A DNA stretch of 32,000 nucleotides from Candidatus Saccharimonadota bacterium (lineage in GTDB: Bacteria > Patescibacteriota > Saccharimonadia > Saccharimonadales > Saccharimonadaceae). This document shows positions 19,153 through 27,216 of this stretch, piece by piece. The position numbers and the translations under genes are program-made. Where the stretch lies: positions 660,001-692,000 of the forward strand of contig JBDSDX010000001.1 of the NCBI GenBank assembly GCA_039920285.1, in the 5' to 3' direction. Under the pieces are notes generated by a model. That model saw only the letters and a program-made list of their open reading frames with translations, ran no database searches and was not told the origin of the DNA. Within the stretch, counting starts at the first letter, position 1, and every line of letters starts with the position of its first letter.

Positions 19153-19227
19153 GGTCCCATCGTCTAACGGTTAGGACACCAGGTTCTCATCCTGACAATC
19201 CGGGTTCGATTCCCGGTGGGATCACCA
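19153..19227 (+). tRNA. tRNA-Glu (anticodon CUC), CCA encoded
   Basis: Hand fold: acceptor GGTCCCA/TGGGATC (one G-U pair), anticodon arm CCAGG-TTCTCAT-CCTGA, T arm CCGGG-TTCGATT-CCCGG, then A-CCA. Confidence 0.9.
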
Positions 19228-22708: not shown

Positions 22709-23179
22709 ATGAGTTCTAATACGATACCCACCAAATCTACTCCACAAAAATACCTCGGCTATTGGCGCAAGAACTACTTATTCGGCATTGCCCGCCCTGG
22801 TGCCTTGTATTTTGATGGTACAAATTTTACGTGTTATGACAATAAGCTTCAATCAGTCTTTAGTGCACCGCTCAAATCCGTCACTATCAAAAAAGGTGCT
22901 GGAGTCTTCAATGTTTTGATTGATGGTGTTCAGACGAGCATTCTGACGTACAGAGGTGGTGGTATCTCCCCAACACCAAGCAAGCAACTACTTGCATTTA
23001 TGGAACAGTCGACAAGCGGTGCATACAAGAACGATCTTCCAATCATAGCCACCGGAGTCTCCACGTTGGTTTCTCCCGTGCTTGGTGCAGCCGTGGATGT
23101 CGTCGCAATAGCTGATTATGTAAAAGGCCAGAAGACACTCGGTCAATTCTTGCAATCTATCGGGTTACTCCCAGCTTAA
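22709..23179 (+). CDS. Hypothetical protein
   Basis: Track ORF trimmed to ATG 22709, because the track start TTG 22676 lies inside the terminator stem. No family recognised. Confidence 0.5.
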   Translation: MSSNTIPTKSTPQKYLGYWRKNYLFGIARPGALYFDGTNFTCYDNKLQSVFSAPLKSVTIKKGAGVFNVLIDGVQTSILTYRGGGISPTPSKQLLAFMEQSTSGAYKNDLPIIATGVSTLVSPVLGAAVDVVAIADYVKGQKTLGQFLQSIGLLPA

Positions 23180-23202
23180 TTACATTAATCAGGTCACCAA
23201 AG

Positions 23203-23233
23203 AAAATAGCTTGCCATTGTTGTGAGCTATTTT
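23203..23233 (+). terminator. Hairpin terminator module related to 22651-22689
   Basis: AAAATAGCT (23203-23211) pairs with AGCTATTTT (23225-23233). It is preceded by GGTCACCAAAG, similar to GGATCACCAAAG at 22642. Confidence 0.55.
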
Positions 23234-23256
23234 ATACTCTCAATAACTTATGAATA

Positions 23257-23285
23257 TTGCTTATTTTTGTAAAATATGCTATAAT
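23257..23285 (+). promoter_or_regulatory. Sigma-70-type promoter with extended -10 for the high-GC cassette
   Basis: TTGCTT, 17 nt, then TATAAT, with TGc immediately upstream of the -10. Confidence 0.55.
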
Positions 23286-23326
23286 TACAACCGTCTTTGT
23301 TGAGGTTTCGTCCTCCAAAGTACTTT

Positions 23327-23409
23327 GACAGACAGTGAAACACAAGGTGTTAGCTGGGTTGAACGCTCGCCCGTTGAACCCACATATCACCTTGTGTTTA
23401 CGAATAACA
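23327..23409 (+). repeat. Left inverted-repeat arm (GACAGACAGT ... ACGAATAACA) split by a 63-nt hairpin
   Basis: The 10-mers at 23327-23336 and 23400-23409 are the exact reverse complements of 24056-24065 and 24045-24054. The intervening 23337-23399 folds through a perfect 12-bp stem (23338-23349 with 23388-23399) plus an inner GGGTT..AACCC stem. Confidence 0.75.
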
Positions 23410-23468
23410 CAGTATCGCCCCGAAAGGGACGGTTGGCGCCTAATGCCAGGTGAAGTTGGGACCCATCC

Positions 23469-23978
23469 ATGAAGAACCCTCTCAAGAACCGCCAGCAGTT
23501 CTCCTGCGGCACTCTCTCGACCAGCTTGCTGATCGAGAACGGCGAGCACCCGGAAGCAGTGACGCTCGGTGTGATCGACGAGGTCTGGAGCGAGTTCCAG
23601 GTCTTTTGCCAGCGCGACATCATCATGATGAGCACGACGAACCTCGACGAGGTCGTCGAGTCGAGCTACAGCCGAGTCAAGCAGTCGGTGACCCTTGAGG
23701 TCAACGGCACCAAGTTGACGATCGGCGCCACGCTGACCGTTCGCAAACCCGGCATCGAAGTCGAGATCGGTCACGACCTGGCGAGGTTGCTATTCCGTAG
23801 CCACCACCTGGTGGACACGGTCTCCCATCTCATCGAGATGGAGGTGCAGCGCGCCGGCCTCCCGGAGGACCCGTTTGGTTCCGGCATGCCGTTCGACCCG
23901 TCGAACATGCCTGAGTTCCTGCGAGATCTCATGGGCGAGCGCGGCTTCACCGTGATCGAGCTGCGTCCGCGCGGCTAA
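23469..23978 (+). CDS. Hypothetical protein, high-GC / GC3-biased (foreign-looking) gene
   Basis: Track ORF of 169 aa. Sampled 60-nt lines have 55-65% GC versus 47-48% in core genes. Third codon positions are mostly G/C. The antisense ORF 23232-23774 looks like a high-GC shadow. Confidence 0.65.
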   Translation: MKNPLKNRQQFSCGTLSTSLLIENGEHPEAVTLGVIDEVWSEFQVFCQRDIIMMSTTNLDEVVESSYSRVKQSVTLEVNGTKLTIGATLTVRKPGIEVEIGHDLARLLFRSHHLVDTVSHLIEMEVQRAGLPEDPFGSGMPFDPSNMPEFLRDLMGERGFTVIELRPRG

Positions 23979-23993
23979 CACTTGCCCTAGGGT

Positions 23994-24033
23994 GCTGCGG
24001 CTTCGGTCACAGCACCCTAGGGCATCCACACAC
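23994..24033 (+). terminator. Very stable hairpin after the high-GC ORF (no U-tract)
   Basis: GCCCTAGGGTGCTG (23994-24007) pairs perfectly with CAGCACCCTAGGGC (24020-24033). The apex contains C(TTCG)G. No T-run follows. Confidence 0.55.
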
Positions 24034-24044
24034 TTGTTATTCGT

Positions 24045-24065
24045 GACTGTCTGTCGCACCGCTTA
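24045..24065 (+). repeat. Right inverted-repeat arm (TGTTATTCGT-G-ACTGTCTGTC)
   Basis: Exact reverse complement of the two halves of the left arm, joined by a single nucleotide. Confidence 0.75.
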
Positions 24066-24189
24066 CATGAATGTATGTTCATGCTGATGAGCTGAAAACA
24101 GCGAAAAGCAAACCTCTTGCACTTACCCCCGTCATAAGTCATACTAACCACAAGTAGTTTGACCTGAAGGGTAGGGCACTATAACACCG

Positions 24190-26163
24190 TTGAGCTTGAA
24201 TCGATTCTGGCACCGCCGCATTTATGAGGTGGCTTTTTTGCTTTCGATTGCAATCGTCATATTGTTTGTCGTGCCTCTGCTTACAAACATTGCCCCGACT
24301 GGCTTGTTTAATGTCAGCCTGTGGGTTGCCGTCGGCGCCGGTATTACGGCCATCGCTAGCATCGTGTGTTATCTTGTGACACCTGAAAAACCCGGCTATC
24401 TCTATGCGCTTATTATTTATCTGTTATTCACCGCAACTGTCGGACTTTTGGTCATACAAACAGGGGGTACGAGCTCTCCGTTCATCGCCGTATGGATGCT
24501 CGTGTCGTTCTTCGCTGGTGTCTTCGCCTTCTGGGGACTTGTACCAATTGTCCTTGCTTCAGGTACCTTTATCGCTGTTGAATACCTCAGTAGTCATTTT
24601 TCAGCCGGCCTCGTGGCAGTTGTGGTGTTTACCTCGATCGTTCCTCTTATTATTAGTATGTTCGTCTGGCGCAACCAGAGTGATGACACAACATCAAAAG
24701 ACGTCAAAAATCTTGCCAATCAACTCTCAGAAGTCGCCAGTAAATCTGAAATAGTCATTAATGCCATCGGTGACGGAGTGATCGCTGTCGACGTTCAAGG
24801 TGTTATCCAACTCATCAACCCAGCCGCCCAAGAAATCCTCGGATGGGGGAAACAAGACGCACTTATGCTCAATTACAAAACAATTCTGAAATTGTCAGAT
24901 TTGAATAATAAAGAACTTGACCCATCCCAAGATCCCATCCAACAAGTGCTTAATACCAATCAAGAAGCACGGTCAAATGCCATCACCATCGTGACTAAGA
25001 CCGGGAAGAAAATCACCAGCTCAATTGTAGTTTCTCCCGTTGGTGATGCCGGTAACGGTGTGATTGCGGTGTTTCGTGATGTGACGAAAGAAAAAGCCGA
25101 AGAACGCGAACAAGCTGAATTTATTAGCACCGCCAGTCACGAAATGCGCACTCCGGTTGCCTCAATCGAAGGATATCTCGGCCTCGCTTTGAACCCAAAC
25201 ACTGCCCAAATTGACGAAAAGGCCCGCGACTTCATTATGAAAGCCCACGAAGCCGCCCAGCACCTTGGTCGTCTCTTCCAGGACCTTCTCGATGTCTCTA
25301 AGTCTGAAGATGGTCGTATGACCAACATGCAACGTGTTGTCGACATGGCAAACTTTACTGGCACTATCGTTCAAGGTCTTCAAGCCAAAGCAGCCGAAAA
25401 AGGCCTTCAGCTTGTCTATACACCGACTGAAGCAAGTGGTCAAAAGCAAATCACCCCTGTTTATTTCGTGAACCAAGATAATGACCACATCCGCGAAGTT
25501 CTCGACAACCTGATCGAAAACGCGATTAAATATACACCCACAGGCCAAGTTCTCGTTGACATCCAAGGCTCTGAAGACAAAGTCACCGTCAGTGTTAAAG
25601 ATACCGGCCTCGGCATTCCTCCTGAAGATGTCTCGCATCTTTTCCAAAAGTTCTACCGCGTCGACAACGCCGATCGTCAATCAATCGGTGGGACTGGTCT
25701 TGGACTCTATTTATCTCGTCGTTTGGCTGAAGCGATGGGCGGACGTCTCTGGGTTGAAAGTGTCTATAAAACGGGAAGTACCTTCTTTCTCGAACTTCCT
25801 CGTATTACGAGTGAAGAGGCAGACCGTTTCAAACAACAGCAAACAGCCCAAGCCCAAAAAGCCGCTGCCGACGCCTTGGTTGCCCCAGCCCCTGCTGCAC
25901 CAGAAATGCCACCAGTCATGGGACCATTACCGCCAGCTCGACCGTCTGTGTCTGGTGACATCAAGCCTGCGACCACTGTTCCAAGAGGTGAGAGTTTGAG
26001 TCGTGAACAAATTGCTGAACATGTTCGTCAACTTCAAGCAATGGCTCGTCAACAACAGCCAGTTGCTCAGCGACCAGCCGATGCAACAACACCAGCTCCT
26101 GCTGCGCCGACCCCAGTATCGACACCCGCGGCCACACCGCCAGTGCAAGCTGGACAACCGTAA
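24190..26163 (+). CDS. Polytopic PAS-containing sensor histidine kinase with Pro/Ala-rich C-terminal tail
   Basis: About 5-6 N-terminal TM segments. PAS-like region (INAIGDGVIAVD ... VFRDVT). H-box ASHEMRTPVASI, N-box LIENAIKYTP, G-boxes KDTGLGIP and GTGLGLYLSR. The tail of about 120 aa is rich in P/A/Q. The start is uncertain (TTG 24190; GTG 24229 is an alternative). Confidence 0.88.
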   Translation: MSLNRFWHRRIYEVAFLLSIAIVILFVVPLLTNIAPTGLFNVSLWVAVGAGITAIASIVCYLVTPEKPGYLYALIIYLLFTATVGLLVIQTGGTSSPFIAVWMLVSFFAGVFAFWGLVPIVLASGTFIAVEYLSSHFSAGLVAVVVFTSIVPLIISMFVWRNQSDDTTSKDVKNLANQLSEVASKSEIVINAIGDGVIAVDVQGVIQLINPAAQEILGWGKQDALMLNYKTILKLSDLNNKELDPSQDPIQQVLNTNQEARSNAITIVTKTGKKITSSIVVSPVGDAGNGVIAVFRDVTKEKAEEREQAEFISTASHEMRTPVASIEGYLGLALNPNTAQIDEKARDFIMKAHEAAQHLGRLFQDLLDVSKSEDGRMTNMQRVVDMANFTGTIVQGLQAKAAEKGLQLVYTPTEASGQKQITPVYFVNQDNDHIREVLDNLIENAIKYTPTGQVLVDIQGSEDKVTVSVKDTGLGIPPEDVSHLFQKFYRVDNADRQSIGGTGLGLYLSRRLAEAMGGRLWVESVYKTGSTFFLELPRITSEEADRFKQQQTAQAQKAAADALVAPAPAAPEMPPVMGPLPPARPSVSGDIKPATTVPRGESLSREQIAEHVRQLQAMARQQQPVAQRPADATTPAPAAPTPVSTPAATPPVQAGQP

Positions 26164-26214: not shown

Positions 26215-27216
26215 ATGGCAAAAATTTTACTGGTAGAGGACGACAAGAGCCTAAGAGAAATCTACGGCGTCCGCCTCATGGCCGAAGGCTACGAAATCGT
26301 TTCAGCAGGTGATGGGGAAGAAGCCCTCGCTATTGCTATTAAGGAAGCGCCGGCATTGATCGTCAGTGACGTCATGATGCCAAAAATTAGTGGCTTCGAC
26401 ATGCTCGACATTCTTCGAAGTACCACTGAGACAAAAGACATCAAGGTAATTATGATGACCGCGCTTTCCAGCGACGACCAACGTGCCCGCGGTGAAGCTC
26501 TTGGAGCTGACCGTTATCTCGTCAAGTCTCAAGTCGGCATCGAAGATGTCGTCCGTACTGTTCACGACGTCCTTGGTGACGGTGTTGCCGGATCTGCGCC
26601 TGCAGCTCCTAGCTTTTCATCGACTCCTGCACAACCTGGTAACCCCTCGGCACCTGTTATGCCTGCGCCTGTTGCAGCACCCGCTCCTATGGCTCCAATG
26701 CCTGCTATGCCGGCACCATTACCCAATCCTGTTGCTATGCCCGCCCCAGTTACTTCGGACCCTGTAGCTCCTGCTCCCGTCGAAGCACCACTTCCTCCTG
26801 TTATTAATATTCCGACTGAAGAACCAGTTATGGCTCCGCCTGCACCAATTCCCGCACCAACACCAGAGTTTGTTATGCCTGAACCTGCCATGCCTGCACC
26901 AGTAGAAATGCCAGCACCTATCGCTCCAACTCCCGCCGCTCCAGCACCGTTTGTTGCGCCAGCGCCCTCACCATTCGCACTTCCTGAGCCAACTGCGCCA
27001 TTTTCTTCACCAGCCCCAGCATCTCTCGGCGATCGCATCATCGCACCATTGAATCCTAACCTTCAGGTTGGTGCTCCCAATGATATCGCGACACAAATGA
27101 ACCAAGAGCTGGCTGCCCAAATGGCACCACTTCCTCCAGCACCTGCTCCAGAGCCACCATTGCCTCCACAGCCACCTGTTCCTCCTATGCCGCCACAACC
27201 AGGCGCAGCTCTGTAA
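26215..27216 (+). CDS. Response regulator: receiver domain plus roughly 200-aa Pro/Ala/Met-rich tail, no recognisable output domain
   Basis: ILLVEDD, LIVSDVMMPKISG and YLVKSQ define the REC domain. The remainder is low-complexity (MPAPVAAPAPMAPMPAMPAPLPNPVAMPAPV ... PPLPPQPPVPPMPPQPG). ATG 26215 is preferred over the track GTG at 26209. Confidence 0.85.
   Translation: MAKILLVEDDKSLREIYGVRLMAEGYEIVSAGDGEEALAIAIKEAPALIVSDVMMPKISGFDMLDILRSTTETKDIKVIMMTALSSDDQRARGEALGADRYLVKSQVGIEDVVRTVHDVLGDGVAGSAPAAPSFSSTPAQPGNPSAPVMPAPVAAPAPMAPMPAMPAPLPNPVAMPAPVTSDPVAPAPVEAPLPPVINIPTEEPVMAPPAPIPAPTPEFVMPEPAMPAPVEMPAPIAPTPAAPAPFVAPAPSPFALPEPTAPFSSPAPASLGDRIIAPLNPNLQVGAPNDIATQMNQELAAQMAPLPPAPAPEPPLPPQPPVPPMPPQPGAAL

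Follow-up and report, generated by a model that had tools for sequence, protein, structure and literature searches.

In prophage regions of bacteria, clustered hammerhead ribozymes flank single genes of changing identity, among them the anti-restriction gene ardA, and their cleavage has been shown (PMC3088659). Here we describe a type III hammerhead ribozyme at the end of a single-gene cassette from a Candidatus Saccharimonadota bacterium, in a stretch of 32,000 nucleotides (nt) that we call the window (assembly GCA_039920285.1, contig JBDSDX010000001.1, positions 660,001 to 692,000 of the forward strand; unprefixed coordinates below are those of the window). In hok/sok-type mRNAs, studied by Gerdes and co-workers, the extreme 5' and 3' regions pair by fold-back, and the resulting molecules are compact and long-lived. 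The processing stems of rRNA are RNase III sites, and RiboJ insulators and ribozyme-flanked designs for circular RNA are engineered constructs. With a probability of roughly 0.6 we read the present locus as one member of a family of transcription units specific to Saccharibacteria, each of them self-contained, with a single variable gene whose mRNA is built into a conserved RNA frame. In this reading the order of the unit is a TGn-extended -10 element, a 5' hairpin (P0), the linker UACUU, the 5' arm of a long-range helix (LR1), a long hairpin (P1) and the 5' arm of a second long-range helix (LR2), followed by the ribosome-binding region, a variable GC-rich open reading frame (ORF; the payload), a further hairpin (P3), the 3' arms of LR2 and LR1 and finally the type III hammerhead.

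The hammerhead ribozyme and the frame around the payload

The ribozyme had been overlooked in an earlier reading of the same DNA (the first-pass annotation), which described a 169-codon ORF enclosed by a split inverted repeat. With permissive settings, an Rfam scan of 23100-24250 returned a single notable match, to RF00008 at 24058-24112 on the + strand (26.9 bits, E 0.003), placing the ribozyme directly after the right arm of this repeat. The score is below the gathering score of 48.5; RF00008 was built mostly from plant-pathogen and eukaryotic examples, so that the missed threshold concerns the curated family and not the fold. The core positions C3, U4, G5, A6, N7, G8 and A9 as well as G12, A13 and A14 are all present, A15.1-U16.1 corresponds to A24106-U24064, and the core is closed by the Watson-Crick pairs C24066-G24083 in stem I and G24091-C24102 in stem II. 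Helix III is the open one, as in other type III hammerheads, and the motif agrees with the sequence criteria by which Perreault et al. 2011 accept hammerheads (PMC3088659). Our family covariance model R1 (described below) gives it 66.5 bits, the window sequence being among those used to train the model. No other known self-cleaving ribozyme was detected in 23100-24250 at E <= 5, the 5' side included, and no second hammerhead core was found in the window. The features of the unit, all on the + strand, are as follows.

23257-23285: promoter, with a weak -35 hexamer TTGCTT (23257-23262), a 17-nt spacer and the TGn-extended -10 element TGcTATAAT (23277-23285)
23295-23320: P0, hairpin at the predicted 5' end of the transcript, with outer stem CUUUG/CAAAG, a UU bulge and inner stem GAGG/CCUC (minimum-energy fold)
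23321-23325: single-stranded linker UACUU between P0 and the long-range helix, its C, U and U invariant across 16 aligned cassettes
23326-23336: 5' arm of LR1 (UGACAGACAGU), partner 24046-24056
23338-23399: P1, long hairpin at the three-way junction, with 28-nt arms 23338-23365 and 23372-23399 that are 86% complementary
23400-23409: 5' arm of LR2 (ACGAAUAACA), partner 24035-24044
23410-23468: remainder of the 5' untranslated region (UTR), with two small hairpins at 23414-23433 and 23434-23448
23469-23978: payload ORF of 169 amino acids (aa), GC 0.616, GC at first, second and third codon positions (GC1/2/3) 0.59/0.38/0.87
23983-24024: P3, GC-rich hairpin after the stop codon, with arms 23983-23997 and 24010-24024, 15 perfect base pairs (bp) plus three inner pairs and a UUCG apex
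24035-24044: 3' arm of LR2 (UGUUAUUCGU)
24046-24056: 3' arm of LR1 (ACUGUCUGUCG), ending 4 nt ahead of hammerhead stem III
24057-24114: type III hammerhead ribozyme
24061-24064 with 24106-24109: stem III, GCUU with AAGC
24065: A at position H17; predicted cut between 24065 and 24066
24066-24072 with 24077-24083: stem I, CAUGAAU with GUUCAUG
24084-24090: hammerhead core CUGAUGA
24091-24094 with 24099-24102: stem II, GCUG with CAGC
24103-24105: GAA of the hammerhead core

The two halves of the split repeat (23327-23336 with 24046-24055 and 23400-23409 with 24035-24044) are each 10 nt long and 100% complementary, and such a 10+10 arrangement occurred in none of 1000 dinucleotide-preserving shuffles of 23100-24300. 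The predicted cut site falls 9 nt beyond the end of the long-range helix. Transcription would start at about 23292-23295, and our model of the 5' module (R2, below) matches the window at 23281-23342 with 53 bits. A scan of 23000-24400 returned no intrinsic terminator: P3 has no U tract and is followed by AUCCACACAC, and the scan gave no terminator-like site between the payload ORF and the next gene.

Much of what the first-pass annotation had read from this part of the sequence stands. The right flank of its inverted repeat, TGTTATTCGT-G-ACTGTCTGTC, was quoted exactly and lies at 24035-24055, 10 nt lower than it had been placed. The hairpin that splits the left copy is P1 with the arms listed above, and the perfect hairpin with a UUCG apex and no U tract after the ORF is P3. 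A strong bias towards G and C at third codon positions had been claimed for the ORF, and its GC3 of 0.87 compares with about 0.35-0.51 in the other long ORFs of the window. For the promoter, the hexamers, the 17-nt spacer and the TGn are as described, whereas "near-consensus" was too generous for a -35 hexamer that matches the consensus at only three of six positions; a simple consensus promoter scan did not list this promoter. The proposal that the flanks close the mRNA into a three-way junction is supported: the junction is kept in related loci with different sequences and eight of the ten pairs of the outer helix show compensatory changes.

The whole transcript is far more stable than dinucleotide shuffles (z = -7.3). 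When shuffled among synonymous codons the excess falls to z = -2.3, with one of 100 shuffles equally stable; nine other cassettes treated in this way gave a mean z of -2.4, and the ORF of the window alone gave z = -0.9. The value of -7.3 is thus mostly due to the UTR hairpins and the helices. With this drop a rod-like, viroid-style folding of the ORF was rejected. Pairing of the tail 3' of the cut with P0, or of AAACCUC (24110-24116) with GAGGUUU of P0, had been noticed by eye; it was inconsistent across loci and was dropped.

A hammerhead of type III and a helix that sets the 3' end beside the 5' end are also what one would expect of a circular or viroid-like RNA, in which a ligase such as RtcB would seal the ends left after cleavage and held by LR1 to give a coding circle. 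The z of -7.3 and the tandem arrays described below, where an upstream hammerhead could supply a 5'-OH, point the same way. Yet each unit has one hammerhead and none lies upstream in the window, a 5' end made by a promoter carries a triphosphate that is not a ligase substrate, the scan for further self-cleaving ribozymes was negative, the ORF alone is not unusually structured, and the unit resides in a 795-kilobase (kb) chromosomal contig. We regard circularization as very unlikely.

The cassette family and the covariation of its helices

The elements of the frame recur across Saccharibacteria with conserved sequence, with covariation on the transcribed strand and with a fixed geometry, and the 5' module is coupled to the ribozyme. 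An exact-pattern scan for stem I and the core in one genome for each of 185,579 species returned 109 stretches. About 85 of them carry a full hammerhead and all of these come from Saccharibacteria or Patescibacteria assemblies; the remaining matches, in other phyla, have neither stem II nor GAAA and were set aside as chance. The pattern had no match in IMG/VR. From an alignment of 81 distinct family hammerheads we built the covariance model R1, and a search with it found 110 hammerheads in 85 loci (627 kb), many loci having several. None of the 12 loci tested (L041, L057, L046, L072, L103, L025, L055, L001, L129, L016, L069 and L034) reached the Rfam gathering score for any hammerhead model even though all have canonical cores, which would explain why the family has gone unannotated.

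In the alignment of 81 hammerheads all core positions are invariant except for the free position 7, and H17 is C, A or U. Paired cells make up 93% of the total, against 29-43% when the partner strand is slid. Stems II and III contain ten pairs with two-sided changes, amounting to 262 such cells. The sequence of stem I was fixed by the search pattern; in one tandem array, however, it reads CACAAAU/AUUUGUG and is compensatory to CAUGAAU/AUUCAUG. This array (L072:1-8000) comprises at least seven cassettes with their hammerheads, all on one strand. Its payload blocks have 60-70% GC and the junctions between them 40-46%; in each junction a ribozyme comes first, and the promoter and 5' module of the next cassette come after it.

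The outer clamp was traced in at least 23 cassettes, where a stretch immediately 5' of stem III is complementary to a site that lies 0.4-1.7 kb further upstream, after the conserved motif CCRARGUAC-NU. The helix, LR1, is 10-19 bp long across the family. In the 23 cassettes the end of its 3' arm lies 7-11 nt from stem I, so that LR1 and stem III are separated by only 0-3 nt. LR1 often reads TGACAAGCAGAC/GTCTGCTTGTCA, and the variants TAACAGTGTAGTG, TAACAAGTGGT, TGACAAAGTAATTC and TAGCAGACAC each have the matching partner. When the alignment was anchored on flanking landmarks, eight of ten pairs showed two-sided changes (44 cells). G-U cells outnumbered A-C cells by five to one in this alignment and by 12 to three under a scoring scheme that favours G-U, counts that are suggestive only.

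At the 5' end, a TGnTAnAAT box recurs 7-9 nt upstream of P0 in related cassettes, and at this distance P0 should form the 5' end of the transcript. The family consensus of P0 is CUUYG, a UU bulge, GAG...CUC and CRARG; in the corresponding alignment (A4) pairing holds for 90% of cells, compared with 31-60% once the partner strand is slid, and the stems contain C-G to U-A changes as well as numerous G-U pairs. The 5'-module model R2 found 31 copies, and by hand comparison 27-28 of them have a hammerhead on the same strand within 0.45-1.3 kb downstream. Minimum-energy folds of about 20 cassettes share a common plan of P0, LR1, P1 and, in many, LR2. Nearly all members have a long, near-perfect hairpin like P1 directly after the 5' arm of LR1, its base often ACAARGUGAG, and most cassettes have a GC-rich hairpin like P3, without a U tract and of non-conserved sequence, soon after the stop codon. 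LR2, of 7-12 bp, was seen in L002, L034, L055, L042, L094, L097 and L043, and many members have LR1 (11-16 bp) without LR2.

LR1 and LR2 together would amount to a duplex of about 21-24 bp around the mRNA, comparable with the stems on either side of 16S and 23S rRNA, and it could be argued that RNase III cuts there and that this cut, not the hammerhead, sets the mature ends. Two coaxial helices of 11 and 10(+3) bp do enclose the ORF and this architecture is conserved. The duplex is, however, broken by the P1 junction and a bulge, the many members that have LR1 alone offer 11-16 bp, which is short for RNase III, and the ribozyme would be left unexplained. This makes an RNase III processing stem very improbable indeed as an account of the family.

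Payload genes, GC excess and genomic setting

The payload of the window is a real coding sequence and not a chance ORF in GC-rich DNA, as it shows strong three-base periodicity. In a word-indexed protein search it matched only its own entry, which is annotated on the 795-kb contig of a Candidatus Saccharimonadales assembly. An exhaustive HMMER search of 1.84 billion representative proteins added two relatives, P0002 (41% identity) and P0003 (33%). These are the only three proteins with E <= 0.001; all are set in the same frame and two of them in a clearly Saccharibacteria context. The start and a LTVRKPG motif are conserved among the three. Neither the 169-aa protein nor its homologues had a match in Pfam, PHROGs or PADLOC. 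The AlphaFold model (predicted local distance difference test, pLDDT, 69; predicted template modelling score, pTM, 0.59) suggests a soluble-looking alpha/beta fold with a beta-alpha-beta-beta-alpha core and no membrane helix, and a comparison with PDB and BFVD gave no significant neighbour (best E 0.04, TM about 0.2-0.3).

The loci of the two relatives, L001 and L002, are short contigs, each of which keeps the GC-rich ORF. L001 has a downstream histidine-kinase gene identical in kind to that of the window and is thus the same locus in a relative; its contig begins within the 5' UTR, so that only the 3' arms are visible. The upstream genes of L002 are unlike those of the window. This locus retains the promoter and the 5' hairpin as well as the two long-range helices with the hairpin that separates them. 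The arm sequences differ among such homologous loci, for instance AACAACACACGC with GCGUGUGUUAUU in L002. Both hammerheads are kept with the core CUGACGA, which differs at the free position 7, and both have compensatory changes in stem II; in L001 a G-C pair of this stem has become A-U. In the ribozyme and the spacer that follows it (212 nt), the window and L001 share 83.5% identity, whereas the payloads are barely alignable as DNA and 37-41% identical as proteins. For payload homologues (the window against L001 and L002, and the paralogues of L103:4092-6002 on the oriented strand) the ratio of nonsynonymous to synonymous substitutions (dN/dS, Nei-Gojobori) is about 1.1-1.3, with dS = 0.24 for the L103 paralogues; this could reflect fast or diversifying evolution, the values being unreliable because the strong GC3 bias compresses dS. 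A 14-nt stretch of the ORF (23620-23633, TCATCATGATGAGC) resembles the end of stem I and the start of the hammerhead core (24079-24092, TCATGCTGATGAGC) as a direct repeat at 86%, which is probably due to chance.

Across the family, clustering by sequence sorted the ORFs immediately preceding 89 hammerheads into 77 groups, nearly all payloads being unrelated to one another. Most payloads have no Pfam match; those that do include a family 2 glycosyltransferase, a GH113 glycoside hydrolase, a fatty-acid desaturase and SPFH/Band 7, ThiF, DUF350 and Tad4 domains, and ten payloads match PHROGs. The Tad4 (type I Thoeris inhibitor) domain was found in the 312-aa payload of a canonical cassette, L055:5326-6590 on the - strand (E 5e-30, 104 bits against a cut-off of 25); an epibiont here carries a gene for immune evasion within a cassette of its chromosome. 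In three cassette-bearing loci (L066:6682-7970 and related loci including L095) a ThiF-like E1 enzyme stands beside a JAB/MPN-like protein, a pair that could serve in defence or in ubiquitin-like conjugation; the ThiF gene of L095 is found about 400 nt ahead of a hammerhead.

The nature of the payloads bears on the possibility of a translational lock of the hok type, in which the clamp, with the start region also paired, would hold the complete mRNA in a stable, untranslated state until further 3' processing or a trigger opened it. The pairing of 5' and 3' ends is conserved, the transcript is more stable than its synonymous shuffles, several family payloads are short membrane peptides, and in the minimum-energy fold 23449-23458 pairs with 23942-23951 and the start-codon region 23466-23472 with 23929-23935, that is with the 3' part of the ORF. 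The latter is however a single-sequence prediction, many family payloads are enzymes or large proteins, and the window payload, at 169 aa and with a predicted alpha/beta fold lacking a membrane helix, does not look like a small hydrophobic toxin of the hok kind. No antisense RNA was seen either, though no search aimed at one was made. We consider such a lock quite unlikely.

The window as a whole has 47.4% GC, and the payload GC3 of 0.87 is well above that of its other long ORFs (about 0.44 in the neighbouring genes), in line with the bias that the first-pass annotation had claimed. From this contrast and from the hairpin without a U tract, a terminator style that it called common in high-GC Actinobacteria, it had gone on to an attractive but unproven reading of transfer from host to symbiont, weighed here as a recent acquisition from a high-GC actinobacterial host or its phage. 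This excess turns out to be a general feature of the family: the GC3 of a payload minus that of other genes in the same locus has a median of +0.20 (Wilcoxon p = 7e-13), and 76% of payloads exceed the local GC3 by more than 0.1. Payload GC3 also tracks the local background, the two values being 0.30 and 0.19 in L094 and 0.87 and 0.44 in the window, and pairs of homologous payloads at 27-82% identity mostly keep high GC3 in both members. The excess is therefore a standing property of the family and not the mark of a recent import. No homologue of the window payload was found outside Saccharibacteria cassettes among 1.84 billion representatives and 5.8 billion clusters, nor did phage and plasmid collections yield similar DNA, and the hairpin without a U tract is P3, a recurrent part of the frame. 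With a GC excess that is family-wide and no homologue outside the family, the support for an actinobacterial transfer is removed, and we hold a recent acquisition of this kind to be highly improbable.

The neighbours of the cassette are ordinary chromosomal genes (a NUDIX hydrolase, a glycosyltransferase, a polyprenyl-synthase-like protein, a histidine kinase and a response regulator), with no integrase or phage gene among them. We compared 80 loci with an orthologous kinase gene (46-72% identity). The downstream response regulator is conserved in them and nothing is conserved upstream; synteny thus begins only at the kinase and no clean empty site can be defined. The cassette is absent upstream of the kinase in 79 of the 80. 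In the lone exception, L129, a hammerhead lies 2 kb ahead of the kinase gene, after a different gene of ordinary GC, and with this distribution the cassette must be counted as accessory. In the window, the segment 19400-23200 (37-45% GC) encodes the NUDIX hydrolase, the family 2 glycosyltransferase (GT2), the polyprenyl-synthase-like protein and two ORFs without relatives. These low-GC genes are absent upstream of the kinase in the 80 loci, so the stretch from 19.2 to 24.1 kb may be a variable island; a tRNA-Glu gene (19153-19227) lies 4 kb upstream of the cassette, before the low-GC stretch. The histidine kinase and response regulator have low-complexity tails rich in Pro, Ala and Thr (25900-26163 and 26600-27216), where local GC rises to 54-57% and GC1 and GC2 are odd.

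Cassettes of the family often lie close to tRNA genes, with a tRNA gene no more than 250 nt from the cassette end in about 12 of 60 loci (among them L041, L046, L055, L060, L043, L081, L025, L074, L014 and L016). The cassette of L025 lies within the 16S-23S spacer beside tRNA-Ile, and in L074 a hammerhead without a payload follows tRNA-Ser after 38 nt.

Read as DNA, the inverted repeat had looked to the first-pass annotation like the terminal repeats of a non-autonomous mobile cassette. The cassette half of this idea is borne out, in that one frame occurs in many copies across Saccharibacteria (110 hammerheads in 85 loci and 31 matches of the 5' module) around unrelated genes. The unit extends past its arms, by about 70 conserved nt on the left and by the 58-nt ribozyme on the right, so the arms are not simple terminal inverted repeats, and the outermost position of the repeats that marks a transposon or a miniature inverted-repeat transposable element (MITE) is lacking. 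A broader version would have the arms, or the palindromes P1 and P3, act at the DNA level as sites of recombination or transposition (MITE, IS200/IS605-type or attC-like), the RNA features being secondary. Besides the multi-copy frame with its unrelated ORFs and the tandem arrays, this idea can draw on the conserved sequence of LR1 at many loci, the absence of the cassette from 79 of the 80 kinase loci, the proximity of tRNA genes, and the 83% DNA identity of ribozyme and flank between window and L001 next to so divergent a payload. It has to contend with arms that are internal to the unit, with promoter and P0 outside on the left and the hammerhead outside on the right; with P1 and P3 being unrelated to one another and P3 not conserved in sequence; with G-U exceeding A-C in helices on the transcribed strand; with a promoter of its own in each cassette, unlike integron cassettes; and with the negative searches of IMG/VR and of phage and plasmid collections. 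Moreover, among 485 ORFs near cassettes (8 kb per locus) no recombinase, transposase, reverse transcriptase or ligase recurs. Mobility at the DNA level is in our view an unlikely explanation of the frame.

Proposed mechanism and comparison with known systems

Our preferred reading, a family of single-gene units with a built-in RNA frame, suggests the following sequence of events. Once the polymerase has passed the 3' arms, LR1 and LR2 would fold the transcript into a three-way junction abutting stem III, and the hammerhead would cut after A24065. The cut would free a single-gene mRNA whose 5' end is a hairpin and whose 3' end is a 2',3'-cyclic phosphate 9 nt past the clamp. This would uncouple the mRNA from the downstream histidine-kinase gene without a terminator and could shield both of its ends from exonucleases. 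Since the frame brings its promoter and ribozyme with it, whichever ORF occupies the space between P1/LR2 and P3 should be expressed alike, and an interchangeable ORF slot of this kind would explain both the occurrence of one frame around unrelated accessory genes and the tandem arrays.

Several points weigh against this reading. The start of transcription, self-cleavage, the stabilizing and insulating effect and the exchange of payloads are steps that we infer from conserved sequence and structure. The window copy itself could cleave poorly, as its stem III has only four Watson-Crick pairs where most members have six or seven and its Rfam score is below the gathering score. A recognizable canonical 5' module accompanies only about 30% of the family hammerheads; the clamp is a feature of a large subset of the family and not of all members. 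The nearest relative of the 3' arm and ribozyme of the window (L129:1946-2017, 89% over 72 nt) has no obvious 5' arm, which shows that the 3' module can occur without the full frame. The paired fraction of LR1 is biased upward because its arms were located by complementarity, a bias from which the covariation is free. The sequence of LR1 (TGACAAGCAGAC) is conserved beyond what a purely structural helix would need and, together with that of the P1 base, may point to a protein that acts with it or to a function of the DNA itself. Finally, the frame does not account for the GC excess, and the ORF is no more structured than its synonymous shuffles.

The last point invites a speculation. P0, the LR1 sequence, the P1 base and the cyclic-phosphate 3' end might together serve as a tag for export or packaging, the payload mRNAs, with codon usage much richer in GC than the genes of the epibiont itself, being passed to the high-GC host and translated inside it. 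If this were true, the payloads would be RNA-encoded effectors, possibly immune inhibitors such as the Tad4-domain payload, and the GC3 excess, the payloads without relatives, the stabilized monocistronic mRNAs and the conserved structural elements would all be accounted for. We think this extremely unlikely.

Under the preferred reading, the family brings to light over 100 hitherto unannotated hammerhead ribozymes in a major lineage of uncultivated bacteria and defines an architecture in which stem III of a ribozyme sits beside a helix clamping both ends of a protein-coding mRNA. Our literature search found no description of such a stem III-adjacent clamp of coding mRNA ends, and no paper linking hammerheads with Saccharibacteria, TM7, Patescibacteria or the candidate phyla radiation. 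The family also calls for caution in the interpretation of genomes: a one-gene GC island can mimic import from a high-GC host, and in the present case it is a regular trait of cassettes resident in the lineage. The GC excess and the payloads without relatives, one of them with an anti-Thoeris domain, are experimentally approachable, and genetic manipulation has become possible in some Saccharibacteria.

Among the described systems, retrozymes, viroid-like RNAs and Obelisks share the type III hammerhead and the joining of ends by base pairing, and some of them encode proteins. They are cut at both ends, circularized and replicated as RNA or reverse-transcribed, while the present units have one ribozyme each, a DNA promoter and a chromosomal location. 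The stems that flank rRNA likewise enclose a functional RNA between complementary sequences, but as RNase III sites around a non-coding RNA. With hok/sok the family shares the pairing of 5' and 3' ends, here through LR1 and LR2. The 3' end of hok is trimmed by exonucleases whereas here it would be made by a ribozyme, and hok encodes a small toxin under the control of an antisense RNA in contrast to the diverse payloads of the family, 169 aa long in the window. Integron cassettes resemble the family in forming arrays of single ORFs, with a conserved structured boundary around unrelated accessory genes of which many have no relatives. They are, however, promoterless, bounded by attC and moved by IntI, while each unit here has a promoter and a ribozyme, with no attC-like site and no integrase nearby. 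In the reduced genomes of these symbionts the family looks like a modular packaging of accessory genes, with arrays that are integron-like without an integrase.

The closest precedent remains the hammerheads of prophage regions (PMC3088659). Common to both are canonical hammerheads between genes, arrays, flanked genes that change and include anti-defence genes (ardA there, the Tad4-domain payload of L055 here), and a role that would in either case consist of cutting transcripts into single-gene mRNAs. The Saccharibacteria hammerheads belong to a sub-class that scores below the Rfam thresholds; their loci are chromosomal, have no neighbouring phage genes and are unmatched in IMG/VR. A promoter and a conserved 5' module come with each unit, the 5' UTR is joined to the sequence next to stem III by a long-range helix that covaries, and the payloads are GC-rich relative to the genome. 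RiboJ and ribozyme-flanked designs also use a ribozyme cut to uncouple a gene from its transcriptional context, but they are engineered and place the ribozyme at the 5' end or at both ends; the family looks like a natural counterpart of engineered ribozyme insulators. What sets it apart from the hammerhead precedent is the promoter of each unit, the 5' module, the clamp and the GC-rich payloads, in a chromosomal, non-phage setting in Saccharibacteria.

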